Assembly: GCA_947169825.1 (NCBI GenBank)
Contig: CAMVRE010000001.1
Location: 16,463 to 80,462, forward strand
Length of the DNA: 64,000 nucleotides
Reading direction: 5' to 3'
Source of the DNA: an uncultured Verrucomicrobiota bacterium
Lineage (GTDB): Bacteria; Verrucomicrobiota; Kiritimatiellia; RFP12; UBA3636
Shown: positions 4,149-58,490 of the stretch, one piece after another
Numbering within the stretch: the stretch's first letter is position 1
Layout: every line of letters starts with the position of its first letter
Notes under the pieces: model-generated
What the model was told of the DNA's origin: nothing
The model's input: only the letters and a program-made list of their open reading frames with translations
Database searches by the model: none
Position numbers and translations under genes: made by a program

Positions 4149-4190
4149 GCCGCAAAGTCTACCACAGGGGCGGCTCGCCCGACAAGGGCG

Positions 4191-9860: not shown

Positions 9861-10148
9861 ATGAGGAAGCTTCTGGACCATCTCAAGGCGCACGAGGGCA
9901 CGGCGGATCCGTGGATCCTCGTCTGGGACAACCGCGGAACGTTTCCGCGGAAGGTTGGCGAACTCATACGCATCTGCAATCTTGCGACGGGCGCCTCGCA
10001 GCTCTTCGGCATCCCCGTCCGCACGTCGACCTACGTCGACTACCGCGGCGAGGTCGTCCTCGAAACCCGCGTCGAGCGCGCCGAGCTTCCGGAGCTCGTC
10101 GCCCGCCTCGAGTCCCGCCTCCGCCGCCCGCTCCGCCGCGTTTCGTGA
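9861..10148 (+). CDS. Small conserved protein (95 aa); partner gene of the AlbA_2 module, paralog of 14852-15142
   Basis: ggggagaag lies upstream. It is about 80% identical at both protein and DNA level to 14852-15142 (DPWILVWDNRxTFPRKVGxxIRICNLATGAS..FGIPVRTSTxVDYRGEVVLETRVERAELPEL). It ends 38 nt before the AlbA_2 gene. Confidence 0.65.
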   Translation: MRKLLDHLKAHEGTADPWILVWDNRGTFPRKVGELIRICNLATGASQLFGIPVRTSTYVDYRGEVVLETRVERAELPELVARLESRLRRPLRRVS

Positions 10149-14851: not shown

Positions 14852-15142
14852 ATGCACAAACTCCTAGAACACCTCAAAGCGCATCTTTCGACGGCCGATC
14901 CGTGGATTCTCGTCTGGGACAATCGCGAGACGTTTCCGCGGAAGGTCGGGGACCGTATCCGCATCTGTAATCTGGCGACGGGCGCGTCGCTGTTCTTCGG
15001 CATCCCCGTTAGGACTTCGACCTGGGTCGACTACCGCGGCGAGGTCGTTCTCGAAACCCGTGTCGAGCGGGCCGAACTACCGGAACTGCTCGCGCGCCTC
15101 GAGGCGCGACTCCGACATTCGCCGGGCCGCCGCGTTTCATGA
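14852..15142 (+). CDS. Small conserved protein (96 aa); partner gene, paralog of 9861-10148
   Basis: See 9861-10148. The 3' flanking sequence tgatttcctttcggc is also duplicated. Confidence 0.65.
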   Translation: MHKLLEHLKAHLSTADPWILVWDNRETFPRKVGDRIRICNLATGASLFFGIPVRTSTWVDYRGEVVLETRVERAELPELLARLEARLRHSPGRRVS

Positions 15143-15179
15143 TTTCCTTTCGGCCGTCCTTCTGGTAGAATTCATCTCC

Positions 15180-18100
15180 ATGCAAGCCACTTCCACCGCA
15201 CGGTCTCCTCTGGTTCCCGTCAACGGATACGATTTTGCCCGATCGGTTCTCGACCAGGAACCGGATCGTGGCGTCGAGATACTTCTTCAGGCGGCAGGCG
15301 AAAACGAATCGGACTGGCTCGAAAAGAAAGCCGCGGTCTACCGGTCGGAAAGCAAGGACGAACGCTTCCGGAAAGCGTTGGAAAACTGCCCCCCCGAACA
15401 GAGGAAACGCAGGAAAGATCTCCTGAATCTCGAATTGCTCGCTGAAATCGCCAAGGCCATCGTCGCCATCCACAACTCCCGAGGTGGCGTTTTGTTCGTC
15501 GGCATCGACGACCAAACCAATGAACCCGTTTCCTTCGAAAACAACGACGGCGGAGAAATCTGGAGGACGAACGGAAAGGGCGACTATGCCCTCAAGGCGG
15601 TTTGGGGCCGGCTTGCCCGGGAGAACGGAGAGTTTCGTTTCGACCACGAGACATTGATCGTTCCGGTGGAAGCCGTCGGCGTGGTTCCAAAATGGTGTCG
15701 CTACAAGAACGCGGATGTCCTCGCCCTGCTCATCCCCCCGCTCGCACCCGAAAAGAATCCGCTTGAAGTCACGCACGTCGAAAACAATTCTCCGTGGAGA
15801 TCCATTCCGAAGAGAGCACCAGGAGATGTCGGTCAAGTCAAGAAGGAAATGCGAAACGATGCGTGGATCGGTTCCGCCGCACAATTGGCCGATTTCCACC
15901 ACGCCCGCCAAGAACGTTTTCTAAATCAAACCGATCTTGCTTCCAAACTCAAGATACTTGGTCTTTCCGTTCCCAGCTCCTTTGTTTCCCAAATTCCGAA
16001 GCCCCGGCAGGAAATCACCTCGACCGTCGACCGTCCGCGCGCAGCCAACTTCGTCGGACGCGAAAAGGAACTCGAAGAGTTGCACGAACTGCTCGCGGAC
16101 GGACGAATCCCCGTCGTGACCGGTCCAGGTGGGACGGGCAAGTCCGAGTTGGTCCTCCAGTACGCCGCACGGAACAAGGCCGACTACCCCGGAGGTTTGT
16201 TCCAGATTGACATGGAAGACGTCACCGATTGGAATCAGACCTTCCTATCAATGCTGGAGAAGCCCGGCGTTCGGGATGTTCTCGGACTTCCGGTGAACAA
16301 CGAAGCCGAGATAGAATGTGAAGCCGAAAAGGAACCAAGTGTCAATAGTGCGGAATTGGCAGCCGACGGAACTGGCATGCCATGCGACAATTGCTTGAGA
16401 GAGAGCATCGCCGGAGACAAGAAATCCGTTCCAGCGGCCTTGTCCGCCCGGGTCGGCAGGGCAGGTCCCATTTTGATGATCCTTGACAACGTCGATCCTC
16501 CAGCCTGCAAAACGCTTTTCAAGGAAACCGTCCTCTCCAAACTGGGTCTTCCGTCCGACGTGAAAATCGTCGCCACGGCACGGGCGTCAGATCTTACCTT
16601 TCCGGCCAGCGGCGTCTGCAAGGAATTCCGACTTTCCGACTTGTTGCCGGATGTAGCCGTCCGGTTTTTGCTGGCAAATCACCCGGAGGCTTCCGAAGAC
16701 GAACGGAAGGCGGCGGAAAACATCGCCCGGATGCTTGATTATCGCATCCTCTATCTGAAGGCCGTTCCCTCGCTGTTGGAGGATGACGATTCCGATTTTG
16801 CCGGGTCGTGGAGGGCACTCGAAGCGGGCCTGCGCGACAATCTCGCGGATGTCGTCGCCGCGGGAATGGAAGACGACAGGGGCCGGACGCCGTCCGCCCT
16901 TTGGCAACTGACGCAAAAGGCTTTTGCCGCCAATCGTCCAAAAGGAGACAGGTGGATTCTCCTGGCGCGGATCGCCTCGTTCTTTTCTCCTGACCTCGGC
17001 ATCCGGAAAGCCGCGCTTTCCGCATTGTGGAAAAGCATCTCGGCGCCAGATGGCGATCTGGACATCGCCTTTGATCAGGCGATCAACAAACTTCTCAAGC
17101 ATGGTATCCTCGAGGACCGAGACGGCGAATACTATATGCATCGTCTCACATGCGCGGCCATTCGAGCCGCTTCAAGAGAGGAAGCGCCGAACATCGAGGA
17201 ATCTGTCGGTTTGTCATTGGCGGGAACTGGTCGCTCGGAGAGTCGGGACTGGGTATCGCTCTCCGGCAGTATTCCGGCCCTGCGCCATGTCCCGGAGGCT
17301 CTGCTCGACGGAAAGACGTGCGTTGACATCCTGTGCGGCAACCGTCAATTCGCCGACCTTTGCCCGTGGACAAAACTCGACTATTCTGATTGGAGGAAAC
17401 TTCTTGCCTTTCATCCACAGTTTATCGATCAATTGCAACAATCCGCTGATAATGGCAGCGCTGGTGCACAAATCGCTCTTGGGATTTGTTACTATTACGG
17501 TCGCGGCGTGAACCAGAATTACGAAGAAGCCGTAAAATGGTTCCGCAAGGCTGCCGAGCAGGAAAACGCTGCTGCGTATTCGAATCTCGGCGTATGCTAC
17601 GAAAAGGGCCGCGGCGTGGAACGGAACGCCGAAGAGGCCGCGAAATGGTACCGCAAAGCCGCCAATCAGGAAAACGCTACTGCGCAGACCAATCTCGGCA
17701 ATTGCTACTACAACGGTTGCGGCGTGGAACAGAGTTCTGAGGAAGCCGTGAAGTGGTACCTCAAGGCCGCCGAGAAGGGAAACGCTGATGCGCAGTTCAA
17801 TCTCGGCGTATGCTATGGCAATGGCCACGGCGTGAAGCAGAACGCCGAGGAAGCTGTGAGGTGGTTCCGCCAGGCCGCCAATCAGGAAAACGCTACTGCG
17901 CAGTTCAATCTCGGTTGCTGCTACTACCACGGTCGTGGTGTGGAACAGAACTACGAAGAAGCCGTGAGGTGGTGGCGCAGGGCCGCCGATCAAGGAAAGG
18001 GTGCAGCGCAATTTAATCTTGGCGTGTGCTATGGCAAGGGCCACGGCGTGGATCGGAGCGCCGAGGAAGCCGTGAAGTGGTACCGTAAGGCTGCCGAGCA

Positions 18101-19067
18101 GGAAGACGCCGCTGCGCAGGCTAGGCTCGGCTTGTGCTACGAGGAGGGCGAAGGCGTGGAACGGAACGCCGAGGAAGCCGTAAAATGGTACCGCAAGGCC
18201 GCCGAGCAGGGCAACGCTTCTGCACAGACAAAACTCGGTTATTGCAAGAATGACGGCCGTGGCATAGAACGAAGCGTCGAAGATGCGGTGAAGTGGTGGC
18301 AAAAAGCGGCAGAACGGGGGTACGCCCCGGCTCAATGGGAACTCGGTAGTTGCTTTGCCCTCGGAAAAGGTGTCGCGCGGAATGAGGAAGAGGCCGTAAA
18401 CTGGTGGCGTAAGGCGGCGGACCAAGGAAACCCCTGGAGACAAATCCGTTTGGGCCGGGTTCTTTTGTTCGGGAACGGCGTTGAAAAGAACGAGGCGGAG
18501 GCGTTCCGTTGGTTCCAGCGCGCGGCGGAACAAAAAGACGATTATGCGTTCGCCTGGCTCGGCTACTGTTTCGCGTCAGGAACCGGGACGCCCAAGGATA
18601 CACAAAAATCTGAATCGCTCTTTTTGAAGATCAGTCAACCCGCTCTTGGATTCAACGAGATTGCATGGTGTTTGTTCAAAGCAGGACGGTTTTCGGATGC
18701 CTTGCCGTTCGCGGAAAGGGCAGTTGCCGCGTTGCGGACAATCGAAGACTTCCCGATGCAGAAACGAATTATAATCCTCGATACACTTGCTGCCATTTTT
18801 CACCATTTGAACCGGGAAGAGGAAACGAAAGACGTTTGCTCCGAAATCCTGTCTCTGTTCCCAGAAAACGACGATTCAAAACACCACGAGGAAGCTCTCG
18901 TCCGGCTCGGGCGGGCCTGTCAACGCCTTGGCGACAAATCTGGCGCGGTCGATGCGTTCCAGAAGGCACTAACCATTGTGGAACGGCATGACGGCAAGCA
19001 CGCCGAATACGGAGAGTCCGCAGATTCCTTGCGCGCGTTGCTGGCCGAATTGTCGGAACGCGGTTGA
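15180..19067 (+). CDS. AlbA_2 N-terminal domain fused to STAND (NB-ARC-like) NTPase and Sel1/TPR repeat array; Avs-like architecture
   Basis: NGYDFARSV...ESDWLEKKAA...AIHNSRGGVLFVGIDD. Walker A PVVTGPGGTGKSELV and Walker B ILMILDNVD. At least 12 Sel1-type repeats (AQxxLGxCYxxGxGVxxNxEEAVKWYRKAAEQ). C-terminal TPR-like segment. Confidence 0.85.
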   Translation: MQATSTARSPLVPVNGYDFARSVLDQEPDRGVEILLQAAGENESDWLEKKAAVYRSESKDERFRKALENCPPEQRKRRKDLLNLELLAEIAKAIVAIHNSRGGVLFVGIDDQTNEPVSFENNDGGEIWRTNGKGDYALKAVWGRLARENGEFRFDHETLIVPVEAVGVVPKWCRYKNADVLALLIPPLAPEKNPLEVTHVENNSPWRSIPKRAPGDVGQVKKEMRNDAWIGSAAQLADFHHARQERFLNQTDLASKLKILGLSVPSSFVSQIPKPRQEITSTVDRPRAANFVGREKELEELHELLADGRIPVVTGPGGTGKSELVLQYAARNKADYPGGLFQIDMEDVTDWNQTFLSMLEKPGVRDVLGLPVNNEAEIECEAEKEPSVNSAELAADGTGMPCDNCLRESIAGDKKSVPAALSARVGRAGPILMILDNVDPPACKTLFKETVLSKLGLPSDVKIVATARASDLTFPASGVCKEFRLSDLLPDVAVRFLLANHPEASEDERKAAENIARMLDYRILYLKAVPSLLEDDDSDFAGSWRALEAGLRDNLADVVAAGMEDDRGRTPSALWQLTQKAFAANRPKGDRWILLARIASFFSPDLGIRKAALSALWKSISAPDGDLDIAFDQAINKLLKHGILEDRDGEYYMHRLTCAAIRAASREEAPNIEESVGLSLAGTGRSESRDWVSLSGSIPALRHVPEALLDGKTCVDILCGNRQFADLCPWTKLDYSDWRKLLAFHPQFIDQLQQSADNGSAGAQIALGICYYYGRGVNQNYEEAVKWFRKAAEQENAAAYSNLGVCYEKGRGVERNAEEAAKWYRKAANQENATAQTNLGNCYYNGCGVEQSSEEAVKWYLKAAEKGNADAQFNLGVCYGNGHGVKQNAEEAVRWFRQAANQENATAQFNLGCCYYHGRGVEQNYEEAVRWWRRAADQGKGAAQFNLGVCYGKGHGVDRSAEEAVKWYRKAAEQEDAAAQARLGLCYEEGEGVERNAEEAVKWYRKAAEQGNASAQTKLGYCKNDGRGIERSVEDAVKWWQKAAERGYAPAQWELGSCFALGKGVARNEEEAVNWWRKAADQGNPWRQIRLGRVLLFGNGVEKNEAEAFRWFQRAAEQKDDYAFAWLGYCFASGTGTPKDTQKSESLFLKISQPALGFNEIAWCLFKAGRFSDALPFAERAVAALRTIEDFPMQKRIIILDTLAAIFHHLNREEETKDVCSEILSLFPENDDSKHHEEALVRLGRACQRLGDKSGAVDAFQKALTIVERHDGKHAEYGESADSLRALLAELSERG

Positions 19068-19328
19068 ATTTAACGGGTTTCTTTCACAGAAGGCCTCCGC
19101 CTATGTCTGGGCGGAACAACTCCGATGTTTCGCGCGAAACAGGAAAAGAGTTTGCTGGGAATAATCGCCGAAGAGTTGCTTTGATCCCTTTTTCCGGTGC
19201 GCTCGGCGAGCGCATCCTACCGAGATGGCGGTGCAAAAACCGACGGATCGGGTTCGCATTGGTGGAAAACCGGTCAGACCGGACCTTATCGGGATTGATG
19301 GCAATCAACTCCGACAAGGAAACCGACG

Positions 19329-20561
19329 ATGCAGGCGGACGATCTTGAATCAGCACAGACCGTGCTGCAGGACAAAGTATTCCGGCGCGCAGGCGAACTC
19401 GGATACGACGCCGACAAGATTGAGCCGATCTATGACGGCGTGGCCGATGCAGTGGCATATCTTGACGCGAAGCCGCGGTTGATGTGGATCCTCAAGGAGC
19501 CCTACGACGACTGGGACGACGATGAAAGTCCCTGCGGCGGCGGATGGACGTTCTTCCGGGATGTCGCGAAGGGAAAGACCCTCGCGCAGGTCGCGAACGC
19601 GAACCCGGCCCTTCGCAACGTGGCGTACGCAAGCCGAGCCATTCTGGGCGGCATCGGTTCCTACGCAGAGCTGCCGTGGATTGTGGATGCGCCGGCGGAC
19701 TACGAGCGCTCGCTGCGGAGCATCGCGTTCGTAAACGTGGGCAAGATGCCGGCGGGTCGGACCACGAGCGAGGAACGCCTCGCCGCCTGTTATGCGCAAT
19801 GGAAGGACGTTCTCTTCGAGCAGATCGATCTCTATGATCCGGACATCCTCGTCTTCGGCAACACGCTGCAATGCTTCGAGCCGGACATGGGACTTGATCT
19901 TTCCAAGCCGGTCCGGACCGTGAAGAACGGAGGATCGACGGTGGATATCCACGTTTGGCGCGGCAAGCGCATCCTCTGGGCGCCGCATCCCGCCGCTCAC
20001 ATTCAACCCGAAGAATGGGTGGATTCCGTCATCGAGGCGGCACGGGGCCCGTTAATCCAGGCGGCGCGCTCGGCGAGCGCGCCCTACCGGGAGGAATCCG
20101 CCAGTCCGGTAGGGCGCGATGGCCCCATCGCGCCGGATTCCGAAATCGCGGTACGACCGTCGCAGAAAGTCGCACCGGAAGAAAAAAGCGGGCAGGCCCG
20201 GAAAACAGCGGCGGCTACCGCTTATACAAGGCAGAACAACCCCACGAACACACAACAAAACGAATCCAAAACCAGGAGCAGCACCATGTCCCAAGTCCAC
20301 GCCAATCCCGACGAAATCCGCGACTTCGCCGCCCGGCTCCAGGCCTGCGACGAGAACATCTCGGACGAACTTTCCGCCACGGCCGCCGCGTTCGCGGCGC
20401 TCGGCGACACCTGGAACGACGCCAAGCGCGCGGAGTTCGAGGAATCCTTCGAGGAGCTGAAGGACTGCATCGGCCGCTTCTCGGCCTCCTGCGCGGAGCA
20501 GGTTCCCCACCTGATCCGGCTCGCCGACCACCTCGACGAATTCAACGCCACCTTCTGCTGA
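19329..20561 (+). CDS. Hypothetical protein; N-terminal ~240-aa unknown domain and C-terminal 91-aa helical WXG100-like segment (possibly two genes, see findings)
   Basis: AAGGAA 7 nt upstream of ATG 19329. The ORF is continuous, but residues 241-319 are the translation of a GC-rich palindromic repeat. An A/C-rich canonical leader precedes internal ATG 20286 (MSQVHANPDEIRDFAARLQA...LGDTWNDAKRAEFEE...). Confidence 0.5.
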   Translation: MQADDLESAQTVLQDKVFRRAGELGYDADKIEPIYDGVADAVAYLDAKPRLMWILKEPYDDWDDDESPCGGGWTFFRDVAKGKTLAQVANANPALRNVAYASRAILGGIGSYAELPWIVDAPADYERSLRSIAFVNVGKMPAGRTTSEERLAACYAQWKDVLFEQIDLYDPDILVFGNTLQCFEPDMGLDLSKPVRTVKNGGSTVDIHVWRGKRILWAPHPAAHIQPEEWVDSVIEAARGPLIQAARSASAPYREESASPVGRDGPIAPDSEIAVRPSQKVAPEEKSGQARKTAAATAYTRQNNPTNTQQNESKTRSSTMSQVHANPDEIRDFAARLQACDENISDELSATAAAFAALGDTWNDAKRAEFEESFEELKDCIGRFSASCAEQVPHLIRLADHLDEFNATFC

Positions 20562-20566
20562 ACGAA

Positions 20567-21769
20567 ATGGAAACCGTCGCCTCCGTCGAAAACATGGAAG
20601 ATGTCTCGTCGGCCCTCTCCTCCGGGGTCGAGAACGCGGCGGAGTCCGTCCGCGAGACGGGCTCCTCGCTCGACGGCCTCTCGGAGGCGGCCGACGCCGC
20701 CCTCGCCGATGCGGAGCGCGCGGTCGAGGAGGCCCGGGCAGAAGTCGTCCGGCTCGAATCGCTGGTTTCGTCCCTCGAATCGCAAATCTCCTCCCAAGAC
20801 GACGGCGAGAAGGATTCCGGCGGAAACGATTCCGCCGCGGCCGAACTCGCGTCCGCGCAGGCGGATCTCGGAGAAGCGAAGGAAGAGCTTCGCAATTGCG
20901 AGGACCGTCGCGAGAAGGCGGCGGCGACGGCGCGCCGGGCGACGGCGCTGCGCGAACGCTTCCTGGACGCGAGCCGAGCTTCGCTGAAGCGGATGGAGGA
21001 TCTCGGAACCCTGTGCGCCTCCCGCGTCCGGCATGCCTGCGAGGCGCTGGAGAAGTACATCGCCGAACATCCCGGACACGCGGCGGCCGGATTCGCCGGA
21101 TGGATCCGGTGGACTCCGCCGGCGAACGCGCCCGTGACGCCCGATGCGCTCGCCGCCCGGATCAAGGGCGCGAATCTCCGGGAATCCATCGCCTACGAGG
21201 CGGAGCGCGATCCGCGGTTCCGGTCCAAGATCGAGGACTACGGACGCCGCTGGGAGTCCGCGGCCACGCTCTCGGAGAAGACGGCCGTCATCCGCCAGGC
21301 GCGCCGGAACGCCAGCGGCGAACTGGCGGAACGCGTCGTGACGGCGGCGTTCCGCCCGATCGGAGACGTCTCCACGCAGAACCGGACCGTCTTCGACGAC
21401 GGGCGCTACACGAAGACGGATCTCGTCGTCCGCAACCTGCGCGCGCCGGTGATCCTCGGGCGCGGCGACCGCGCCTTCGCCCCGAAAGGAGGGACGATCG
21501 CGTTCGAGGTCAAGGCGGGACAGGCGTCCTACCTGCGGTCGCAGGAGGACCATCTCGCGTTCCAGGCCGGCGGGCACCGGACGGCGAACGCCTCGGCGAC
21601 GATCTGCACGGCGGACATCCACGATCTGCCGGAAGCGGAGGAGCGCGAACTGAGGGACAGGCTCCGCGCCGCGGGTTCGCCGATCCTCGGCATGCTGCCG
21701 CGGAAGCGGGATATCGACCGGGCTCTCTACGAAGCCATCGTCTACGGAATCGGGAAGACCAGACCATGA
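20567..21769 (+). CDS. Coiled-coil N-terminal / putative PD-(D/E)xK nuclease C-terminal protein (polymorphic-toxin-like)
   Basis: Ala/Glu-rich helical N-terminus (AERAVEEARAEVVRLESLVSSLESQ). C-terminal YTKTDLVVRN...GGTIAFEVKAGQ fits the D...(D/E)xK restriction-endonuclease-fold motif. Translationally coupled to the upstream stop. Confidence 0.55.
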   Translation: METVASVENMEDVSSALSSGVENAAESVRETGSSLDGLSEAADAALADAERAVEEARAEVVRLESLVSSLESQISSQDDGEKDSGGNDSAAAELASAQADLGEAKEELRNCEDRREKAAATARRATALRERFLDASRASLKRMEDLGTLCASRVRHACEALEKYIAEHPGHAAAGFAGWIRWTPPANAPVTPDALAARIKGANLRESIAYEAERDPRFRSKIEDYGRRWESAATLSEKTAVIRQARRNASGELAERVVTAAFRPIGDVSTQNRTVFDDGRYTKTDLVVRNLRAPVILGRGDRAFAPKGGTIAFEVKAGQASYLRSQEDHLAFQAGGHRTANASATICTADIHDLPEAEERELRDRLRAAGSPILGMLPRKRDIDRALYEAIVYGIGKTRP

Positions 21770-21966
21770 ACGACAATCTCGCGACCTCCTTCAAGCGCGC
21801 TCTTGAACTCTTCCGGGAACAGACCCGCGGCGAGTTCGCGACGAATCTGATGGAGAAGGTCCTCGAACCAATGGCGAACGAACTGGACGCCCTGTCGTCC
21901 GAAATCGAAAGCGCGAACCGGGAACTCTCCGATCTCGAAACCGAACTCGAAGGAAACAACGAATGA
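21766..21966 (+). CDS. Small helical protein (66 aa), hypothetical
   Basis: ATG overlaps the upstream stop (ATGA). Coiled-coil ELDALSSEIESANRELSDLETELE. Ends 4 nt into the next start. Confidence 0.5.
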   Translation: MNDNLATSFKRALELFREQTRGEFATNLMEKVLEPMANELDALSSEIESANRELSDLETELEGNNE

Positions 21967-24900
21967 AGAACGACATCCGCGAAACCAACGACGAAATCCG
22001 CCGCCTCGTCGGCGCGCTCGACGCGAGCCTCGACGGCATCCCCGCCGGGGAGGTCGCGCGAGAAGCGGCGCTGAAGGCCCGGGCCGGGAAACTCGACGGC
22101 GAGATCGTGGGCCTGCTCGCGAAGGCGGGCTTCACCCGGGAAACGGCTGGCGCGGGCGCTTTCGACTCCCTGCGCCGAGAGGCGTCCGAACGCGCAGCCG
22201 AACGCGCGGGACGCGAAGGGGAAGCGTCGGACGCCGCGACCCGCGCGGCCGCGGTCCGCGCGGAAATCGCGGGGCTGGACGCCGACATCGAGTCGGCCAA
22301 GGCGCGGCAAAAGGCCCTCACGGACCGGATCGACGCGCTGACCGCCGAAATCCGGAACCGGTGGATCGTCGAGGACATCTGGCATTGGATCTTCGGGGAC
22401 GAGGCGAAGGCCGAGAAAGCGAGGGCCGAAGGCGCGAGGGCCGCCGTCCGGAACGAACTGGACGTGCTCCTCGGAAGCCTCCACGAGAAGGAGGAGCGCC
22501 GGAACGCTCTCGCCGCCGAAGAGTCGGACCTGCGCCGCCAGGAGGCCGAACTCGACGCCCGGATCGGGGAGAACGCCGCGCGGCAGAACGCCTTCCGAAA
22601 CGCCGTCGCGACGGCGCGGGAACACGGGAAGGTCCTCGCGGAACTGTCCGATCTGAAAGGCCGGCAGGAGAAGCGGGCCGCCGAACGCGCGCAGGCGGGA
22701 CGCGACGCAGCAAGGGAGCTCGGGGAGCGCGTCGCGGACATCCTCGGCGCGCAGCCCCGGCTCGCGGACCTCGGACCGGACGGATACGGGCGCGCGGAGA
22801 CGTTCCCGAAGGCGTTTTCGTTCGGGCGCTACCGCTTCTCCGCGGACGGCCACGACTGGTGCGTTCCGCGGATCCTGCCGTTCCCCATGCCGAAGTCGCT
22901 CGTCTTTCCCGCGACGGAAGCGGGGACGGCGGCCGTCCGCGAATTCCTCCTGCGCGCGTTCCAGTGCCTTCCGCCGGAATCCCTCGAGATCACCGTGTGC
23001 GATCCCGTCCGGATGGGCGCCTCGCTGAACGGGTTCCAGGGACTCCTCGACAACCGGAAGCCCGTCGCCGGCGGGAAGTTTCCGACCGTCGCGCCCGAAA
23101 TTGAGGAGGCGCTGTCGCGGCTTCACGGCGCGATCGAGACGTTCCTGCAGGAGGAGTGCACGGGCGAGATCCGCGACTGGGCGTCCTACAACGCCGCCCA
23201 TCCCGACCGGCCGAAGACCTACCGGATCCTCGCGATGTTCGACCTGCCGGACCAGCTCACGGACGCCGCCGCGGGCTACCTGGCGAAGATTCTCGAGAAC
23301 GGCCCGAAGTGCGGCATTCTGCCCCTTCTGGCCCTCGATCCGGCGAAGCTCGACCCCCGGAGGCATGCCGCGCTGAAGGCCGCTCTCGGAGCCTTCGCGT
23401 GGGACGCCGGACGGATGCAGGGGATTTTCGGCGGCTTTCCGGTTCTCCGGAACGCGCGTCTCGCCGCGGAGGAACCGTGCGCCCTTCCGGACGACGCGGG
23501 CGTCTCGGCGGCCCTTTCCGGGCTGTGCGCCGGCTACGCGGAGCGCGACCGCTTCGCCGGATCGCTGGAGTCGGTCTTGCGGGACGAGGCGTTCTGGGGA
23601 GCCACGTCCGAGAACGGCCTGGAGGCGACGATCGGATGGGAGGAGGAGAGCCGGGCCCCCGTCCGGTTCTCGCTGAGCGACCAGCCGCCCGTCCATGCGC
23701 TGCTCGGCGGATCGACCGGCTCGGGCAAGACGAACCTGCTCCACGTGCTGATCCACTCCCTCTGCCACCGGTATTCGCCGCGCGAGCTGAACCTCTACCT
23801 GCTCGACTACAAGGAGGCGACGGAGTTCAACGCCTATGCGCGCCCGCTCCTGCCTCACGCCGCGGGCATCGCAACGGAGAGCGACGTGGAATACGGCATC
23901 TCGGTCCTGCGCCATCTGGAGCGGGAGCGCATCCGCCGTTCCGAGCTCTTCAAGGAGGCGGGAACCGTCGATATCCGCGGATACCGGCGCAAGACCGGGG
24001 AGGCGCTGCCGCGCATCCTCCTCGTCGTCGACGAATTCCAGCGGCTGTTCGAGGGCGCGAAGGCGGGCGCCGAGGCGGAGACCCTGTTCCGGAACCTCCT
24101 CAAGCTCGGTCGGTCGGCCGGCATCCATCTGCTGATGGCGACGCAGACGGTGAACGGGCTCCAGAACATCGTTTCGATCCGGACGTTCCTCGGGCAGATG
24201 GCCTGCCGTCTCGCGCTGAAGTGCACGCCGGAGGATTCGGCCACGCTGCTCGCGATGGACAACCTGGCGGCGTCGACGCTGCCGGGACCGCCGCACGGCA
24301 TCCTCAACAACGACCTTGGAAAGAAGTCGGCGAACGTCCGCCTCTGCATCCCGCTGGCGGATCCGGACGGCTGCAAGGCCCACCTCGAGGAGCTGTCCGC
24401 AGCGGCGGCCGAACGTGGCGAGGGCGTGTCGGACTGCCGCGTGTTCCGCGGCACGGCGCTTCCGGAGCCGCCCGCGGACGGCGGGCTCGTTTCGCCGGAG
24501 GAGATCCGCGGCCCTCGGATCGCCGTCGGCCGGACGGCGGACTTCGAGGAGGAGCCGGTCTTCGCGGACCTGGACGGAAAGAACCTGCTCGTGGTCGCCC
24601 GGCGATCCGACATCGCCGGCGGGCTCCGCCGCGCGATCGCGCGGGGGATCGCCGCCGGGGCGGGAACGAAGGAGGTCCTTCTCTATTCGGAGAATCCGGA
24701 GGACTGGAACGCCCTCGACGGGGCCGCGAACATCGTCCGCGTCGACGACGAATGGAGCGGCGAGAACCTCGACGAGTTTGCGGCAAGGGACGCGGCCCGC
24801 AAGGTCGTCGTCCTCGACGGGTTCGAAAATCTCCGCGGGCTCCGCTCGGCGGGATACGTCCCCTCGCGGAGCGGCCCTTCCGCGGCGGAACGCCTCCGCG

Positions 24901-25181
24901 CGCTGGTCGAGCGACCGAAGAAAAGCGGCGTGCAGCTCGTGCTGCTCTTCCGCGACTACGGACGGGCGTGCCAGGACGCCAAGGGCCTGCTCTCGGTCTG
25001 CGACCTGCGCATCGGAGACATGACGCTCTCCGAACCGGCGAAGTTCCTCGGCTTCGAGGGAATCGGGCCGAGGGAGGTTCCGGCGCTCTCCCCGACCAAG
25101 GCCGTGCTGATCGACCGCGACGCCGACGGACCGGCCGTGTTCCGGCCGTTCGCGCAATCGAAAGGGGGCGCGCAATGGTAG
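21963..25181 (+). CDS. FtsK/SpoIIIE-family ATPase (single ATPase domain) with N-terminal coiled-coil region
   Basis: Walker A LLGGSTGSGKTNLLHVLI, Walker B RILLVVDEFQRLF, and GRSAGIHLLMATQTVNGL. GAAGGA RBS. No TM segment apparent. Confidence 0.85.
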   Translation: MKNDIRETNDEIRRLVGALDASLDGIPAGEVAREAALKARAGKLDGEIVGLLAKAGFTRETAGAGAFDSLRREASERAAERAGREGEASDAATRAAAVRAEIAGLDADIESAKARQKALTDRIDALTAEIRNRWIVEDIWHWIFGDEAKAEKARAEGARAAVRNELDVLLGSLHEKEERRNALAAEESDLRRQEAELDARIGENAARQNAFRNAVATAREHGKVLAELSDLKGRQEKRAAERAQAGRDAARELGERVADILGAQPRLADLGPDGYGRAETFPKAFSFGRYRFSADGHDWCVPRILPFPMPKSLVFPATEAGTAAVREFLLRAFQCLPPESLEITVCDPVRMGASLNGFQGLLDNRKPVAGGKFPTVAPEIEEALSRLHGAIETFLQEECTGEIRDWASYNAAHPDRPKTYRILAMFDLPDQLTDAAAGYLAKILENGPKCGILPLLALDPAKLDPRRHAALKAALGAFAWDAGRMQGIFGGFPVLRNARLAAEEPCALPDDAGVSAALSGLCAGYAERDRFAGSLESVLRDEAFWGATSENGLEATIGWEEESRAPVRFSLSDQPPVHALLGGSTGSGKTNLLHVLIHSLCHRYSPRELNLYLLDYKEATEFNAYARPLLPHAAGIATESDVEYGISVLRHLERERIRRSELFKEAGTVDIRGYRRKTGEALPRILLVVDEFQRLFEGAKAGAEAETLFRNLLKLGRSAGIHLLMATQTVNGLQNIVSIRTFLGQMACRLALKCTPEDSATLLAMDNLAASTLPGPPHGILNNDLGKKSANVRLCIPLADPDGCKAHLEELSAAAAERGEGVSDCRVFRGTALPEPPADGGLVSPEEIRGPRIAVGRTADFEEEPVFADLDGKNLLVVARRSDIAGGLRRAIARGIAAGAGTKEVLLYSENPEDWNALDGAANIVRVDDEWSGENLDEFAARDAARKVVVLDGFENLRGLRSAGYVPSRSGPSAAERLRALVERPKKSGVQLVLLFRDYGRACQDAKGLLSVCDLRIGDMTLSEPAKFLGFEGIGPREVPALSPTKAVLIDRDADGPAVFRPFAQSKGGAQW

Positions 25182-25344
25182 GGCGCGACGGCCCGTCGCG
25201 CCGGGCGCCGCGGCGCGTTCGGCGAACGCGCCCTACCGGGATCGGAATCCTCCTTGTGTTTCGGTGGAAAACCCGGAGCGTTGGGATTTATAGAAAGTGA
25301 AAGGACGACGGCCGTCCCGCGAAACCAACCGAAACGATAGCGAC

Positions 25345-26562
25345 ATGAACGAAGAGAACCTCCCCGCCCTCCCGATTCCGCACTGCCCCGTGATGATCGT
25401 CCTCGACACGTCCCACAGCATGTGGGGCCGCGGGATGCAGGACCAGCAGGACGCGCTCAAGGCCTTCCACAAGACCCTGGGCGCGCTCGAATTCGCCGAC
25501 TCGCGGATCGAGATCGCGGCGGTCGGGATGGGCGAGAACCTGAAGGTGCTGCAGCCCTTCGCGCCGCTCGCGGAGTCGAACGTCGCGAATCTGGCGATCC
25601 GTCCGAAGGGCGACACACCCGTTGGCGGCGCGCTCCGGCTCGCGCTCGGCGAACTGCGCCGGAGGACGGACGAGCTCCGCCGCGCCGGCGAGGGCGTCGC
25701 CACGCCGCAGCTGCTGGTTCTCTCGGACGGGAAGTCCTCGGACGACTTTTCCGCCGAAGCCGCCGAGATCCGCCGGGAAGCGGCGGCGGGCCGGCTCGTC
25801 TGCCGGGCCGTCGCGACCGGCGGGAGTCCAGACCTCGGCGCGCTCGCGCGCATCGCGGGGGAGAAGGTCGACCGTCCCGACTACGGAGGCCTCCGCGAGA
25901 CCTTCGCGAGGATCGGCGAAAAAGTGTCGCAGACCTACGAGGACGCCGTTCCCGACCTTCTGATGGCCGAGACCCGGCCGACGCCGAGCGGAACCTACGT
26001 CGAGGAGAAGCCCCGCCCCCTCGGCAACTCCGGTCGCCTGTCCGGCCGCACGGTGCTCGTGGACGGAACGAACGTCTGCTTCTGGGGACGGAACGGAACG
26101 ACAGCGAGCCTTGCGCCCGTCCTTGCGCTCGCCCGGGCGCTCGACGCGGAGGGAGCGGACTGGCAGGCGTGCTTTGACGCCTCCACGCGCCATCATCTGG
26201 CCCGGGGAGGAACCGGCGACGAGGCGGCCTACGAGAGACTTCTCCGCAGCCGTCCCGAGCGCTTTTCGGAGGCGCCGGGTGGAACCTGCGCCGACGTGTT
26301 TCTGCTCCAGGCCGCCGCCGCCGACCCGAAGACCGTCGTCGTCTCGAACGACTTCTACCGGGACCACGTGGCGGAGTATCCGTTCGTCAAGGACAAGAGC
26401 CGGTTCTTCCGCGGCGGCGTGTTCCGCGACCAGCTCTGCATCCCGAATCTCGGGATTCGCTGCGCGCTGATCCGGACGAGCGCGGCGTCTGACGCCGAAA
26501 TCCGTGAAACGGAGAAAAAGAGAACCTCCTGTGGAATCTTAGACGAGGGATTCCTTATCTAG
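25345..26562 (+). CDS. von Willebrand factor A domain fused to Zc3h12a-like NYN ribonuclease domain
   Basis: MIDAS VMIVLDTSHSMWG...GDTPVGGAL...LLVLSDGKS. C-terminal VLVDGTNVCFWGR...KTVVVSNDFYRDHVAEYPFVKDKSRFF aligns with MCPIP1 (DGSNVAMSHG...IVVSNDTYRDL...SFVNDKF). The start may be GTG 25297 instead. Confidence 0.8.
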   Translation: MNEENLPALPIPHCPVMIVLDTSHSMWGRGMQDQQDALKAFHKTLGALEFADSRIEIAAVGMGENLKVLQPFAPLAESNVANLAIRPKGDTPVGGALRLALGELRRRTDELRRAGEGVATPQLLVLSDGKSSDDFSAEAAEIRREAAAGRLVCRAVATGGSPDLGALARIAGEKVDRPDYGGLRETFARIGEKVSQTYEDAVPDLLMAETRPTPSGTYVEEKPRPLGNSGRLSGRTVLVDGTNVCFWGRNGTTASLAPVLALARALDAEGADWQACFDASTRHHLARGGTGDEAAYERLLRSRPERFSEAPGGTCADVFLLQAAAADPKTVVVSNDFYRDHVAEYPFVKDKSRFFRGGVFRDQLCIPNLGIRCALIRTSAASDAEIRETEKKRTSCGILDEGFLI

Positions 26563-26620
26563 GACAGAAGGACGCATCAAACCAACCCGAATTCGAACAA
26601 CAACAAGAAGGAACAAAACC

Positions 26621-27883
26621 ATGTCTCTCCTCCTCCTCGGCGGTCTCGCCATTGCCGGAATTGCGGCCTGGAACGCGCTCTCGGACAGTTCGTCCGGCTC
26701 GACGCCGGCCGCGCCGCCCCCGGCTCCCGTTCGCCGTCCCCGTCCGTCTCGTTCAGCGGGTTCCTCCCGTCCTTGCAAGGCGACGCCGACGCGCCCCCGG
26801 ACGCCGAAGGCGCTTCCTCCGACGGGCGGCGGATGGCTCGCCCAGTGCGGAGCGAGCGCCGTCCCGACCGGCGGGCCGACGACGGTCTACGACCCCAGCG
26901 GAAACCCGCTCCAGCTCTCCGCCGCCGACGAACTCGCCAGCGGCGGCGAGGGGACCGTCTACCGCTGCCCCGGGCACGACGGGTTCGTCATCAAGCTCTA
27001 CAAGCGCGACATCGTGGACAACCCGGAGAAACAGAAGGCCGTCGTGGGGAGACTCCGCGACATGCTCGTCATCGAGGCGCTCCGCAAGGATCGCGACATC
27101 GCCTGGCCGCAGATGCCCGTCTATGACGCGAACAAGCGCGTGGCGGGGTTCGTCATGCGCGCCGTTGACGGAGCGTCCTTCCGTTCCCTTCAGGGCGCGG
27201 CCCAGATCCAGCGTCTGTTCCCCGAATGGGATCGGAAGGACCTGGCCCTCGTGGCGCGCAACTTCCTCGACAAGATGCAGCTTCTTGCGGACCACGGCGT
27301 ACTCGTGAACGACTTCAACCCGGCGAACTTCATCGTCGGAAGGGACCACAGGGTCCGCCTCATCGACTGCGACAGCTTCCAGATTCCCTCCGCGAACGGA
27401 GGCTCTCCGCATGTCACGACGACCTACTTCGCCTCTCACTCCGCGCCGGAGCTCCTTCGCGATCCCTCGCTTCTCAAGCGGTCCCGCGGGCCGGAGCAGG
27501 CTCGGTTCGGTGCAGCCATCATCGTGTTCCAGCTCCTCATGTGCGGACTGCATCCCTACAGCCACAAGAACGGAGGAACTCCCGAGGGAAACCTCAAGGC
27601 CGGGCAATGCCCGCTGGGAATCGGTTCGGGATGCTCGATTCCGACTGGCTGGTACAATCTCCTTAGCTACCTTCCCTACACGATGATGGAGAAATTCATC
27701 CGGATGTTCCGTGACGGGCACGGCGACCTCTCGGTTCGACCGACTCTGGCGGAACTGAGAGCGGAAGTGGAGAAGTTCCTCTTCGTCATGAAGAAAGATC
27801 CGCTCCGCAGGGAACTTGCCCCGGCGACGCCCAAGGTGAAATCGGACTCGAACCAAGGTCCTTGGAAAAAACCGGCGGCCTAG
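26621..27883 (+). CDS. Membrane-anchored Ser/Thr protein kinase-like protein
   Basis: N-terminal TM LLLLGGLAIAGIAAW. Gly-rich loop LASGGEGTVYRC, then VIKLYK, HGVLVNDFNPANFIV (catalytic loop) and LIDCDSF (DFG-like). Confidence 0.75.
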   Translation: MSLLLLGGLAIAGIAAWNALSDSSSGSTPAAPPPAPVRRPRPSRSAGSSRPCKATPTRPRTPKALPPTGGGWLAQCGASAVPTGGPTTVYDPSGNPLQLSAADELASGGEGTVYRCPGHDGFVIKLYKRDIVDNPEKQKAVVGRLRDMLVIEALRKDRDIAWPQMPVYDANKRVAGFVMRAVDGASFRSLQGAAQIQRLFPEWDRKDLALVARNFLDKMQLLADHGVLVNDFNPANFIVGRDHRVRLIDCDSFQIPSANGGSPHVTTTYFASHSAPELLRDPSLLKRSRGPEQARFGAAIIVFQLLMCGLHPYSHKNGGTPEGNLKAGQCPLGIGSGCSIPTGWYNLLSYLPYTMMEKFIRMFRDGHGDLSVRPTLAELRAEVEKFLFVMKKDPLRRELAPATPKVKSDSNQGPWKKPAA

Positions 27884-27967
27884 TGGAAAACCCGGAGGCC
27901 CAGAACTTAATCTAGGTAAAGGAACGAACAACCAAGCTTCAACAAACCCACAAACCCCGAACAGACC

Positions 27968-28663
27968 ATGAAAGACTACGCCAACAACAACACCCTCGAC
28001 GTCACCAACCCCGCGCCGCGCTGCCCGGTGATTCTTCTCCTCGACACGTCCGGAAGCATGGACGGCTCGCCGATCCACGAGCTCAACCAGGGCGTCCGGC
28101 AGTTTCTGGAGGAGACGAGGAGCGACGAGGCGGCCGGTATGAGCGTCGAACTGGAGGTCATCACTTTCGACGACCGCGCCTCGCGCGTCATTCCCTTCCG
28201 GTCCATCGCGGGCGTGAACGGCCTGCCTTCGTTCGGAGCCGGCGGAATGACGAGCATGGGCGCCGCGCTGCGGATGGCGACGGCCGATCTCAAGGCCCGC
28301 CGCCACCTCTACCGCCAGACCGGCGTCTCGAGCTACCGTCCGTGGGTGGTGCTGATGACGGACGGCGGTCCCAACGACGAGTGGCGGAACGCCGCCCGTG
28401 AGATGCGCGAGATGGGGGAGCGAGGGCGCATCCAGTACATCGGCATCGAGATCGGCCATCAGGTGGACCATCGGACGATGTGCCAGATCCTGCCGGCGAA
28501 TCCGGGGCCCGTTCGTCTGCAGGGGCTGAAGTTCAAGCAGTTCTTCCGCTGGCTCACGGACTCCCTGCGCAGCGTCTCCCGCAGCACGCCGGAGCAGGAG
28601 AGCCAGGTGCGGTTCGGCGACATCCGGTCATGGGCCGACCTGGCGAGCCTCGAGAACCTCTAG
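27968..28663 (+). CDS. vWA domain protein (TerY-like)
   Basis: PVILLLDTSGSMDG (MIDAS DxSxS), then SMGAAL...VVLMTDGGPND. Confidence 0.8.
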   Translation: MKDYANNNTLDVTNPAPRCPVILLLDTSGSMDGSPIHELNQGVRQFLEETRSDEAAGMSVELEVITFDDRASRVIPFRSIAGVNGLPSFGAGGMTSMGAALRMATADLKARRHLYRQTGVSSYRPWVVLMTDGGPNDEWRNAAREMREMGERGRIQYIGIEIGHQVDHRTMCQILPANPGPVRLQGLKFKQFFRWLTDSLRSVSRSTPEQESQVRFGDIRSWADLASLENL

Positions 28664-28685
28664 GCCGATGGAAGGAACGAAGAAA

Positions 28686-29792
28686 ATGACCGACAGGAAC
28701 CACCCGATTTCGCGCGGCTTCGCTGCCTCCGTCCCCGGCGCGGGGCACATCCGGTACGCCACGCCGTGCCAGGACGCCTCCGGTGCGATCCTTGCGCCGC
28801 GTCCGGCGGCCATCGTCTGCGACGGCCGCGGCAGCGCGAGGCTCTCGCACTTCGGAGCGCAGGGCGCGGTTCGCGCGTTCTTCAGCCAGCTGAGCGTCCT
28901 CGAGCCGTTCCTCGCCGGCGTGCTCGACCGGGAGGCGCCCCAGGAGAAGTGGGACGGCCTCTGCCGACTCCTCTACCGGACGCTCCTTCAGGTCAAGCTC
29001 GACCTCGCGGCGGAGCGCGGCGGCGAGGAGAAGGACTTCGACTTCACCGTGGCGTTCGCCGTGGCGGGGACCGTCTCGATCGGCTGCTTCCAGGTCGGCG
29101 ACGGGGCCATCGTCCTGCGGAACGGAGGCGTCTGCAGGACCGCGTTCGAGCCCGACAAGGGCGAGTTCGCGAATCAGACTCAGTTCCTCCGTCCGGGCGG
29201 CGATGCCGCGGGAAAGTTCCACGCCAGGCTCTTCCCCGCCGAAGAGAACGAGGGCGTGGCGATCACCTCGGACGGCCCCGAGCACCTCATGTTCCGCCAG
29301 CCCGCGATGGAGCCCGGCCCCATCTTCGGACAGCTTTTCGACGATCTTGCCGCGGGCGAACTCTGCGAGCAGGACCTCCGCGACTATCTCACGAGGGCCG
29401 TCTGGTCGTCCGATCCGCGCGGTTCGGACGACCGGTCCATCGCGGTGCTCCTTCCGAACGCCGCGCAAACTGCAGTCCATCCGACGAAAGCGAAAACGCC
29501 CGACCGGGGCCGTCCGGAACCGCCGCCCGAGCCGATCGGGAACGAAGACGACGATGGACCGGAGGACGATTCAATGGAACCGAACGAAATCCGGAACGAG
29601 GCGGCGCCGTCCGCCGAACGCGCCACGTGCGCTCCGCCGCGTCGACCCGTCTCCCCCTGGATCGCCGCCGCCATCCTCGCCGCCTGCATTCTCGTCGCCG
29701 TGGACACGATCCGCTCCTGGTGGAAGCCGTGCCTCGAATGGAGCGCCGCCCCGACCGCCGCGTACGCCCAGCCGGAGAACGACAACCTCTAG
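28686..29792 (+). CDS. PP2C-family Ser/Thr protein phosphatase-like protein with C-terminal TM anchor
   Basis: SVPGAGHIRYATPCQDAS...IVCDGRGSARLSHFGAQ...FAVAG...GDGAIV. GGAAGGAA sits upstream of ATG 28686; an alternative ATG at 28668 lacks an RBS. C-terminal WIAAAILAACILVAV. Confidence 0.7.
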   Translation: MTDRNHPISRGFAASVPGAGHIRYATPCQDASGAILAPRPAAIVCDGRGSARLSHFGAQGAVRAFFSQLSVLEPFLAGVLDREAPQEKWDGLCRLLYRTLLQVKLDLAAERGGEEKDFDFTVAFAVAGTVSIGCFQVGDGAIVLRNGGVCRTAFEPDKGEFANQTQFLRPGGDAAGKFHARLFPAEENEGVAITSDGPEHLMFRQPAMEPGPIFGQLFDDLAAGELCEQDLRDYLTRAVWSSDPRGSDDRSIAVLLPNAAQTAVHPTKAKTPDRGRPEPPPEPIGNEDDDGPEDDSMEPNEIRNEAAPSAERATCAPPRRPVSPWIAAAILAACILVAVDTIRSWWKPCLEWSAAPTAAYAQPENDNL

Positions 29793-39830: not shown

Positions 39831-39875
39831 GGCGGCGGATGATACCACGGCGTCCCCGCGGCGGGCAAGGGGCGC

Positions 39876-39904
39876 TTGCAGCGCGGCGGCGTTCGTGGTA
39901 TTCT
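39876..39904 (+). promoter_or_regulatory. Sigma70-like promoter candidate upstream of metK (TTGCAG-17-TATTCT)
   Basis: ttgcag cgcggcggcgttcgtgg tattct. About 115-nt leader to ATG 40019. Confidence 0.4.
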
Positions 39905-40018
39905 CCGCGCCCTCAGCACATCAAGAGCCGGGGTTCTTCCGCCCCGCCCCAACCGAGCGATCGCGCCACGGTGGATCCGGACAAGCCGGGATGCGCCCTG
40001 AACCGAAAGGGAAAAACC

Positions 40019-44756: not shown

Positions 44757-44789
44757 ATGCCGAATGCTGAATGCTGAATGCTGAATTCC
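44755..44789. repeat. (GAATGCY)x5 heptamer array overlapping stop codon of 41331-44756
   Basis: gaatgccgaatgctgaatgctgaatgctgaattcc. Confidence 0.9.
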
Positions 44790-45678: not shown

Positions 45679-45759
45679 CAATGCTGAATGCTGAATGCCG
45701 AATGCCGAATGACAGACCGACTTTAAACTTTAAACTTTAAACCCTTCAACCTTTCAACC
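45679..45759. repeat. Composite repeat: (GAATGCY)x5 + (ACTTTAA)x3 + cccttcaacctttcaacc leader box
   Basis: caatgctgaatgctgaatgccgaatgccgaatgac...actttaaactttaaactttaa acccttcaacctttcaacc. The leader box is also present at 44834-44852. Confidence 0.85.
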
Positions 45760-58331: not shown

Positions 58332-58332
58332 G

Positions 58333-58490
58333 GTCGTGATGGTCGTGATGGTCGCGATGGTCTCGATAGTCGCGATGGTCTCGATAGTCGCGATGGTCTC
58401 GATAGTCGCGATGGTCTCGATAGTCGTGATGGTCGGACCATCCAGACCATCGGACCATCCAGACCATCAGACCATCAGACCAGATTCTCC
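58333..58490. repeat. Tandem repeats: (GATGGTCGTGAT)x2 + (GATGGTCTCGATAGTCGC)x4 + (GGACCATCNA)x4
   Basis: Read directly. Occupies the whole spacer between the DUF721-like start and the purM stop. Confidence 0.9.

Follow-up and report, generated by a model that had tools for sequence, protein, structure and literature searches.

The 64,000-nt stretch of DNA analysed here in full (the window), from an uncultured Verrucomicrobiota bacterium, carries five short palindromic units around an operon that encodes a WXG100 protein and an FtsK/SpoIIIE ATPase. Two of them form a pair termed R1, two a pair termed R2, and one, termed A'', stands alone. With a probability of roughly 0.85, all five are repetitive extragenic palindromic (REP) elements tagged with GTAG, belonging to a family of the form GGTAGGGCGCG...CGCGCC whose members occur across Verrucomicrobiota, Kiritimatiellota and Lentisphaerota. 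Such elements are regarded as non-autonomous, their movement being attributed to a REP-associated tyrosine transposase, RAYT or TnpA-REP. The units are generic REPs, ordinary for bacteria of the Planctomycetes-Verrucomicrobia-Chlamydiae (PVC) group, and leave the known picture of how REPs work unchanged. The palindromes are best entered as REP elements that form head-to-head and tail-to-tail dimers; the role of cassette borders, which the initial annotation gave them, does not apply.

Both strands of the window were searched for GTAG followed by a hairpin. Five units of 26-27 nt with one shared design were found, and no further unit of this design was present in the whole 64 kb. In all five, a GTAG head lies 5' of a 9-bp stem with a loop of 3-4 nt; the design reads GGTAGG(G/A)(C/T)GCG, then three stem bases that vary, a loop of GCC(C), the complement of those three bases and CGCGCC. 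Four units have the full head GGTAGGGCGCG, an exact 11-mer restricted to these four in the window. R1 (20060-20136) consists of unit A on the minus strand (20063-20088; GGTAGGGCGCGCTCGCCGAGCGCGCC, that is GGTAGGGCGCG CTC GCC GAG CGCGCC, with a perfect 9-bp stem and a GCC loop), a spacer of 19 nt (20089-20107; gggaggaatccgccagtcc) and unit B on the plus strand (20108-20134; GGTAGGGCGCGATGGCCCCATCGCGCC, that is GGTAGGGCGCG ATG GCCC CAT CGCGCC, with a 9-bp stem and a 4-nt loop). R2 (25177-25239) consists of unit B' on the plus strand (25177-25202; GGTAGGGCGCGACGGCCCGTCGCGCC, that is GGTAGGGCGCG ACG GCC CGT CGCGCC), a spacer of 9 nt (25203-25211; gggcgccgc), unrelated to that of R1, and unit A' on the minus strand (25212-25237; GGTAGGGCGCGTTCGCCGAACGCGCC, that is GGTAGGGCGCG TTC GCC GAA CGCGCC). 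Both pairs read exactly as first annotated. The single unit A'' is degenerate and lies on the minus strand at 19196-19221 (GGTAGGATGCGCTCGCCGAGCGCACC, that is GGTAGGATGCG CTC GCC GAG CGCACC), in the 262-nt gap between a STAND/Sel1 gene ending at 19067 and a gene starting at 19329. It has two substitutions in the head and one stem mismatch, and is 84% identical to the reference copy of the repeat family (D15). The half-copy reported here does exist, but its position had been given as 19187-19214, about 11 nt too far to the left, and the string quoted for it lies at 19198-19225. One further match to the family (45041-45066, minus strand, GGAAGGGCGCGTTCGGCGACCGTGCC; 75% in D15), in which 5 of 26 positions are unlike A', may be a decayed unit or a chance match inside an open reading frame (ORF), and its status is uncertain.

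Perfect hairpins of at least 8 bp headed by GTAG occur four times in the window; in 100 dinucleotide-preserving shuffles they averaged 0.09 and never numbered more than 1. The internal palindromes noted earlier are thus real, the 9-bp stems being perfect in four units and carrying one mismatch in A''. Units A and A', and likewise B and B', differ from each other at both sides of one stem pair, so that pairing remains intact; the perfect-stem sub-types of the window are CTCGCCGAG and ATGGCCCCAT. R1 is a head-to-head heterodimer, in which the GTAG heads face each other across the spacer, and R2 is a tail-to-tail heterodimer, in which the hairpins do so. The arrangements of R1 and R2 therefore do differ, as had been recognized, but what was called a circular permutation corresponds to the two standard forms of REP dimer. 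Similarly, the A and B ends are indeed complementary, because the partners of a dimer are inverted and their heads complement each other. Folding predictions, proposed as a check at the outset, gave very stable structures: -54.3 kcal/mol for R1 as RNA (z -4.05), -32.6 for R1 as DNA (z -4.02) and -48.3 kcal/mol for R2 as RNA (z -2.1). Single-stranded dimers are predicted to fold as one long hairpin.

The initial annotation had also considered MITE-like mobile hairpins, in the sense of miniature inverted-repeat transposable elements (MITEs). This was near the mark as far as anatomy is concerned, which is that of REPs, but neither a target-site duplication nor a long terminal inverted repeat was found. 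MITEs are non-autonomous derivatives of DDE transposons, with terminal inverted repeats around an internal sequence and a target-site duplication. No direct repeats flank R1, R2 or A'' (the empty sites in the related loci L126 and L130, described below, are too diverged for base-level alignment), and the only inverted repeats at the three sites are the REP units themselves. The sites do not qualify as MITEs on these grounds.

A family scan was carried out with the pattern GGTAGGGCGCG-N9/10-CGCGCC, using one genome per species, and matched at least 120 loci. PVC-group labels (Verrucomicrobiota, Kiritimatiellota, Lentisphaerota) are attached to 94 of the 120 loci listed, including Opitutaceae, Limisphaerales, Chthoniobacter, Udaeobacter, Luteolibacter, Akkermansia, Lentisphaerales, Victivallales, Kiritimatiellae and Pontiella. 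Some of the loci labelled otherwise contain a canonical verrucomicrobial unit, and a few others look like chance matches lacking a hairpin. The commonest unit, the 27-mer GGTAGGGCGCGTCACTCCGTGCGCGCC, is unchanged in 33 instances among the listed loci, in metagenome-assembled genomes (MAGs) labelled as different orders, and the 26-mer of window unit A is identical in five unrelated PVC-group MAG loci among the matches listed. The full head is present in 144 instances from other genomes, as the search pattern required. Neighbouring units elsewhere are arranged as 25 tail-to-tail, 7 head-to-head and 4 direct pairs. In these genomes the three free stem positions covary, with a score of 0.242 compared to 0.068 in shuffles (reached in 0 of 500) and 31 cells changed on both sides; they are paired far above the shuffles and use several pair types. 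The hairpin is thus maintained through compensatory changes. At the level of the phylum the units behave as a generic, ubiquitous REP, which is the kind of outcome that the initial annotation had named, for copies within the genome, as speaking against its reading.

One GTAG-REP frame, together with a matching RAYT clade, is therefore very widespread in PVC-group bacteria, including those labelled Akkermansia and soil Verrucomicrobia, and provides a large natural data set for REP/RAYT co-evolution outside Proteobacteria. Six of the matched loci (L030, L031, L063, L071, L104 and L116) are MAG contigs labelled Bifidobacterium, Bifidobacteriaceae or Klebsiella. Five of these contain a canonical unit with the inner sequence TCACTCCGTG, which forms tail-to-tail pairs in three of the five, and L116 has the variant CAGTCCCCTG; the labels or the binning of these contigs are probably wrong. 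Assemblies typically break at repeats. A 989-bp Logan contig identical to the window (L001) stops precisely where R1 unit A has its outer edge, and a length of only 1-3 kb is common among the RAYT contigs, indicating that these repeats break short-read assemblies. L001 was the one contig recovered by exact-protein look-ups, through WXG100; those with FtsK, P0001 and a 454-aa protein gave nothing.

A candidate transposase accompanies the family in other genomes. At locus L029, an ORF at 3677-4348 has as its only match in the PDB the TnpA-REP of E. coli (4ER8, E 8.8e-6). It carries HUH (PDHLHAI) and tyrosine (YILMNPV) motifs, and REPs of the family lie on both of its flanks. A Pfam search of this protein gave no hit, and its identity as a RAYT rests on the 4ER8 match and on the source names of its 947 homologues; among the 120 listed, those with a name are mostly called REP-associated tyrosine transposase or RayT (JGI, NCBI). 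The listed homologues include one from the cultured Pedosphaera parvula, with a unit 118 nt upstream, a unit 80 nt downstream and five more in 20 kb. Four of these seven units lie between called genes, one lies over a gene start and two lie in hypothetical ORFs (49 and 90 aa). In 80 metagenomic RAYT contigs, the head was found no more than 350 nt upstream of the gene in 71 of 75 testable cases and downstream in 70 of 72, and its density was 3.5 per kb near the gene compared to 0.21 per kb beyond 350 nt. In other Verrucomicrobia, the RAYT gene is flanked on both sides by the REP head, which is the REPtron arrangement. Three units in the P. parvula locus (L131; 7035, 7393 and 7751) follow one another at intervals of exactly 358 nt, the head being GGCAGGG in two of the three, and the REP seems to lie inside a longer, tandemly repeated segment there.

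GTAG-tagged REPs were defined by Di Nocera, De Gregorio and Rocco (2013, BMC Genomics 14:522, PMC3733652). Their survey describes homo- and heterodimers joined head-to-head or tail-to-tail, sub-families whose stems differ by complementary changes, and a super-family in which, as in the window, an unpaired GTAG stands at one end of a short-looped stem of 6-9 bp. Dimer spacers are 1-100 nt long in the survey's account, and those of the window measure 19 and 9 nt; most copies lie between ORFs or downstream of them and some in frame within an ORF, again as in the window. The super-family had also been reported there in a verrucomicrobium, Opitutus terrae, which is called "highly enriched in GTAG repeats" and holds families GTAG-17 to -20. 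The intragenic REPs of O. terrae encode VGPALAAG, VAGVADP and GTGVPPV (PMC3733652), whereas the window frame would give VGR.... From this comparison, which concerns encoded peptides and not consensus sequences, the window frame appears to be a further family of the super-family and none of the four listed O. terrae families.

TnpA-REP binds the single-stranded REP and not its complement, needs GTAG and cuts at a CT beside the hairpin; binding and cleavage are known for the systems of E. coli, S. maltophilia and Marinomonas (Corneloup et al. 2021, NAR 49:6982, PMC8266576). The window units look most like REPs of group 3, to judge by their architecture. The SMAG elements of Stenotrophomonas maltophilia (REPtron Sm, served by a group 3 TnpA-REP) consist of GTAG, a perfect 8-bp palindrome and a 3-nt loop in 23 nt, nearly the architecture of the window units (26 nt, 9-bp stem, 3-4 nt loop), and the Sm transposase gene is flanked by its own REPs. 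Stem and loop sequences and the host phylum differ, however, and binding and cleavage were shown in vitro for Sm, while the window family is known from sequence. The REPs of E. coli, whose TnpA-REP is YafM/RayT (PDB 4ER8), likewise depend on GTAG and alternate in orientation in bacterial interspersed mosaic elements (BIMEs), but are longer and have a bulged stem that is needed for activity, unlike the perfect stems of the window. The bulged TCACTCCGTG sub-type found beside verrucomicrobial RAYTs is nearer to the E. coli REPs than the window units are.

Two further comparisons concern dimers and reading frames. The REPINs of Pseudomonas fluorescens SBW25, which Bertels and Rainey reportedly described in 2011, are said to be doublets that replicate as a unit with a single-copy RAYT. 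Like the window dimers, a REPIN comprises two inverted REPs able to form one long hairpin; R1 and R2, in contrast, are heterodimers with different spacers, and the gain seen in the related locus L122 (below) is a unit plus a spacer and not a doublet. Rickettsia palindromic elements (RPEs) and in-frame REPs place a palindrome in an ORF without breaking the frame, as does R1 in the ORF 19329-20561, whereas the linker around R1 lacks coding composition and translation of R1 is only putative. Literature searches with the repeat sequence string and with Pedosphaera plus REP returned nothing relevant.

By analogy with the systems of E. coli, Stenotrophomonas and Marinomonas, a unit would fold as single-stranded DNA on its top strand, and a RAYT would recognise the hairpin together with GTAG, cut at a nearby dinucleotide and transfer the strand. 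Units could then vanish or spread, the latter mostly into intergenic gaps, and would leave no target-site duplications. Once transcribed, they would form very stable GC-rich hairpins. Those of R2 probably set the 3' end of the FtsK message or shield it, and R1 may separate the upstream gene from the promoter and leader of WXG100.

Several observations weigh against the assignment to this REP family. Only three sites are present in 64 kb, all of them within 6 kb; this clustering is only mild, a post hoc hand calculation for three random points giving p ~0.025. R1 is not strictly extragenic, as the upstream ORF runs through it in frame. The hairpins are followed by no T run on the plus strand, and the terminator scan was empty at R1 and R2. 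The RAYT loci that were found have on their flanks almost exclusively the bulged sub-type, with TCACTCCGTG as its inner sequence (99 of 150), and none of them bears the perfect-stem sub-types of the window. Finally, no RAYT was detected by tblastn in the window or in ~150 kb of close relatives, using as probes the L029 RAYT and E. coli YafM; among the loci searched, only L029 matched. A broader proposal would have a single REP frame (GGTAGGGCGCG, a variable paired stem, a YCC loop and CGCGCC) and its RAYT co-inherited across Verrucomicrobiota, Kiritimatiellota and Lentisphaerota, with the perfect-stem sub-types served by a diverged RAYT and R1 tolerated in frame in the gene of a WXG100 (type VII-like) substrate. 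We regard this as tentative and rather less probable than its contrary; if true, it would amount to an unusually deep and well-conserved REP-RAYT partnership.

Alternatively, the units might chiefly serve the host as RNA or DNA hairpins (3'-end stabilisers, terminators, insulators or protein-binding sites) kept by selection, the link to a transposase being historical. R2 begins at the FtsK stop and R1 lies just 5' of the conserved WXG100 leader, compensatory stem changes occur among both paralogous and orthologous units, the dimers fold very stably, and the survey of GTAG REPs reports them as mostly downstream of ORFs and acting as RNA elements (PMC3733652). On the other hand, relatives whose FtsK is 84%, 78% and 55% identical lack units at the same junctions, and the copies in L212 are decaying. 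The sequence 3' of the R2 hairpins (GGGATCGGAATCC) has no T run, and a scan of the plus strand for the terminator consensus was empty at R1, R2 and A''. The hairpins, with no T/U run 3' of them, do not qualify as intrinsic terminators, and the role of a classical terminator is unsupported. In addition, the invariant GTAG and the occurrence of both orientations fit recognition by a transposase rather than termination. We consider a mainly host-serving role unlikely, though it does not exclude the assignment of the units to REPs, with which it is compatible. Rfam gave no match at the units, either in 18900-25600 at E <= 10 or in the whole window at the gathering score.

Comparison with relatives bears directly on whether the repeats mark borders. 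Related loci were found through FtsK homologues (n=7). L122, with an FtsK of 89% identity, belongs to the same sequence family as GCA_002448475.1 ("Verrucomicrobia bacterium UBA6982"); a unit of the repeat family also occurs on another contig of UBA6982 (L038), the genome encoding the 89%-identical homologue (P0002). R1 and R2 are both present in L122. Its R1 has 60 nt inserted in the spacer, made up of spacer and one more A-type unit, and in unit B an A-T pair of the window is replaced by G-C, both sides of one stem pair having changed; its R2 has one stem mismatch. L212 (86%) also has both, R1 with one closing-stem change (CGCACC) and R2 with stem mismatches in both units. Neither R1 nor R2 is present in L130 (84%), L126 (78%) or L129 (55%). 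L127 (72%) lacks R1 and retains of R2 only the head remnant GGTAGGGCGCC, which supplies the FtsK stop. Judged by their substitutions, A'' is probably a decaying single unit and the units of L212 are decaying by mutation.

The gene order of WXG100, a 400-aa protein, a 66-aa protein, FtsK, VWA/NYN and a kinase-like protein is kept in the seven relatives. For the window, L126 and L129, the protein of 420-437 aa that follows VWA/NYN was scored as a kinase. In relatives whose loci reach far enough, a VWA gene and then a PP2C gene follow; since these continue the order, R2 is internal to a conserved block. Sharing extends to the left of A'' as well: it covers a radical-SAM gene (89% identical), a small gene next to it and, in a large gene, the AlbA_2 N-terminus, the C-terminal part of this large gene alone being different. 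The radical-SAM and AlbA_2 matches were obtained with tblastx and confirmed by BLASTP, other tblastx matches being mostly GC-rich noise. Since the order is kept with and without repeats, R2 is internal and synteny continues on the left, the repeats are variable passengers in a stable operon and not its borders.

The initial annotation had taken the palindromes for recombination scars or MITE-like elements that mark both borders and an internal junction of a mobile FtsK cassette and helped to assemble it, with A'' at the left. In favour of such borders, the five units are confined to 6 kb around the operon, the rest of the 64 kb having none, GC content rises from ~0.58 to ~0.68 near 20 kb, A'' follows a gene whose C-terminal part varies between relatives, and a run identical between window and L122 begins 20 nt past R1. 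As a sign of a recombination edge, this last point is weak at best. Between 19300 and 29000, window and L122 form a mosaic of blocks of 97-100% and 70-85% identity, which suggests repeated homologous recombination within the locus, and R2 sits inside a ~2-kb block of 97-100% identity (e.g. 23600-25600), away from its edge. The order from WXG100 to PP2C is moreover kept in L130, L126 and L129, all without repeats; R2 lies inside the module; synteny extends past A''; no target-site duplication flanks R1, R2 or A'' and no long terminal inverted repeat exists; and the same units occur in unrelated contexts throughout the phylum. Borders of a cassette are thus very improbable. A stretch of 173 nt 5' of WXG100, perfectly conserved between window and L122, had been considered a sign of strong constraint; this reading was dropped because the whole locus is a mosaic of identity blocks.

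Integron-like attC sites have R''-L''/L'-R' cores (RYYYAAC ... GTTRRRY), with one site per cassette and shuffled cassettes. The units would resemble attC, or other site-specific recombination sites flanking cassettes, in being imperfect palindromes at the 3' ends of genes. Their core, however, is GGTAGGGCGCG and not GTTRRRY/RYYYAAC; they are 26-27 nt long and occur in both orientations and as dimers; they do not follow every gene; and the intervening genes are a fixed operon in all seven relatives. Judged by the sequence, length and arrangement of the units and by gene order, this explanation deserves next to no credence.

Another proposal concerns the reading frame at R1. The ORF 19329-20561 has no stop codon, and its frame crosses R1 and the leader into WXG100, so that a 240-aa domain, a linker with the REP-encoded peptide AARSASAPYREESASPVGRDGPIAP and WXG100 could form one protein of 410 aa, R1 being a translated intragenic REP dimer. 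This ORF is likewise open in L212, in L127, where no REP is present, and in L122, where the extra 60 nt add 20 codons, and among the species surveyed O. terrae has the most intragenic GTAG REPs (PMC3733652). Against this, 20139-20285 lacks the coding signature of high GC at the third codon position (0.49/0.57/0.61 by codon position, compared to 0.65/0.43/0.91 in WXG100). An open frame is also cheap here, because the three frames together hold only one stop codon over 231 nt. Upstream of WXG100 lie an AGGAG of its own and a CTTATA box that is conserved, and WXG100 is a separate 91-aa gene in L126, L129 and L130. A fusion protein is accordingly doubtful. At R2, the stop codon of FtsK (TAG, 25179-25181) is the TAG of the GTAG head of unit B'; in relatives without the repeat, FtsK ends ~8 codons sooner, at ...FRPFA-TAA. 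Both the ORF that runs through R1 into WXG100 and the stop codon supplied by a REP call for caution in annotation.

The genes of the operon between R1 and R2 (20286-25181, plus strand) were assigned from Pfam and ORFs. They encode WXG100 (20286-20561, Pfam), the 400-aa protein (20567-21769), the 66-aa protein (21766-21966) and the FtsK/SpoIIIE ATPase (21963-25181, Pfam), all on the plus strand, with R2 following. A VWA+NYN gene (25345-26562, Pfam) comes next, then the kinase-like protein, a second VWA protein and a PP2C phosphatase, the last assigned by alignment to the PP2C gene of the relatives. The module 20286-29792 thus joins a type VII-like pair (WXG100 and FtsK) with a VWA/kinase/phosphatase set. 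PADLOC detected no known defence system among the operon proteins, giving generic FtsK/HerA-like matches only. A CTTATA(C/G)A-like box lies at 20221-20228 and at 25287-25294, ~30-65 nt 5' of the WXG100 and VWA starts, with an A/C-rich leader 3' of it. The box is common to L126, L127, L129, L130 and L212 and may be the promoter -10 element of the lineage. In L127, a small CRISPR-like array (~11370-11800; 5 copies of the 36-nt repeat CTGTGAACACCCGCCGAAATGGCGGGCCTGACAGC, spacers of ~30 nt) lies between the FtsK and VWA genes, the place that R2 occupies in the window.

Upstream of the operon, A'' follows the gene of a STAND/Sel1/TPR protein with an AlbA_2 N-terminus (15060-19067; Pfam and ORF reading), and R1 follows the uncharacterised 240-aa domain whose ORF starts at 19329. 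In L122 and L212, the gap before the DUF (domain of unknown function) gene (2204-2370 in L212) contains no unit; where the window has A'', these loci have a hairpin with a T run, CCGCGGTCCGCCTTCGGGCCGCGGAGTTTTTT, after a different upstream gene. The STAND/Sel1 gene is one of three paralogous genes (starting at 9955, 12094 and 15060) with Schlafen/AlbA_2 N-termini and unlike C-termini, and contains seven 108-nt repeats (17443-18390). A 240-nt segment is duplicated at 83% identity 5' of two of these paralogues (9900-10139 and 14891-15130). GC content in this region is 0.56-0.62, below that to the right of 20 kb. In the L122 orthologue of the AlbA_2 gene, likeness is confined to the first ~270 aa (48% identity).

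Elsewhere in the window, the only Rfam matches at the gathering score are a tRNA gene (62942-63013, minus strand) and, ahead of the gene at 39839-41203, a SAM-I/IV riboswitch (39913-40026, plus strand, 45.4 bits). A second, unrelated intergenic repeat consists of tandem heptamers, (GAATGCT/GAATGCC)n, directly 3' of stop codons at 37768-37856, 44754-44787 and 45679-45712. At 37768-37856 two heptamer runs are inverted and form a long hairpin, and the run at 45679-45712 is followed by (CTTTAAA)3 at ~45722-45745. Tandem 9-mers, (ATGGTCGCG/ATAGTCTCG)n, are present at 58330-58440, and tandem 8-mers, (GACCGTGY)n, in ~17 copies at 61656-61800.

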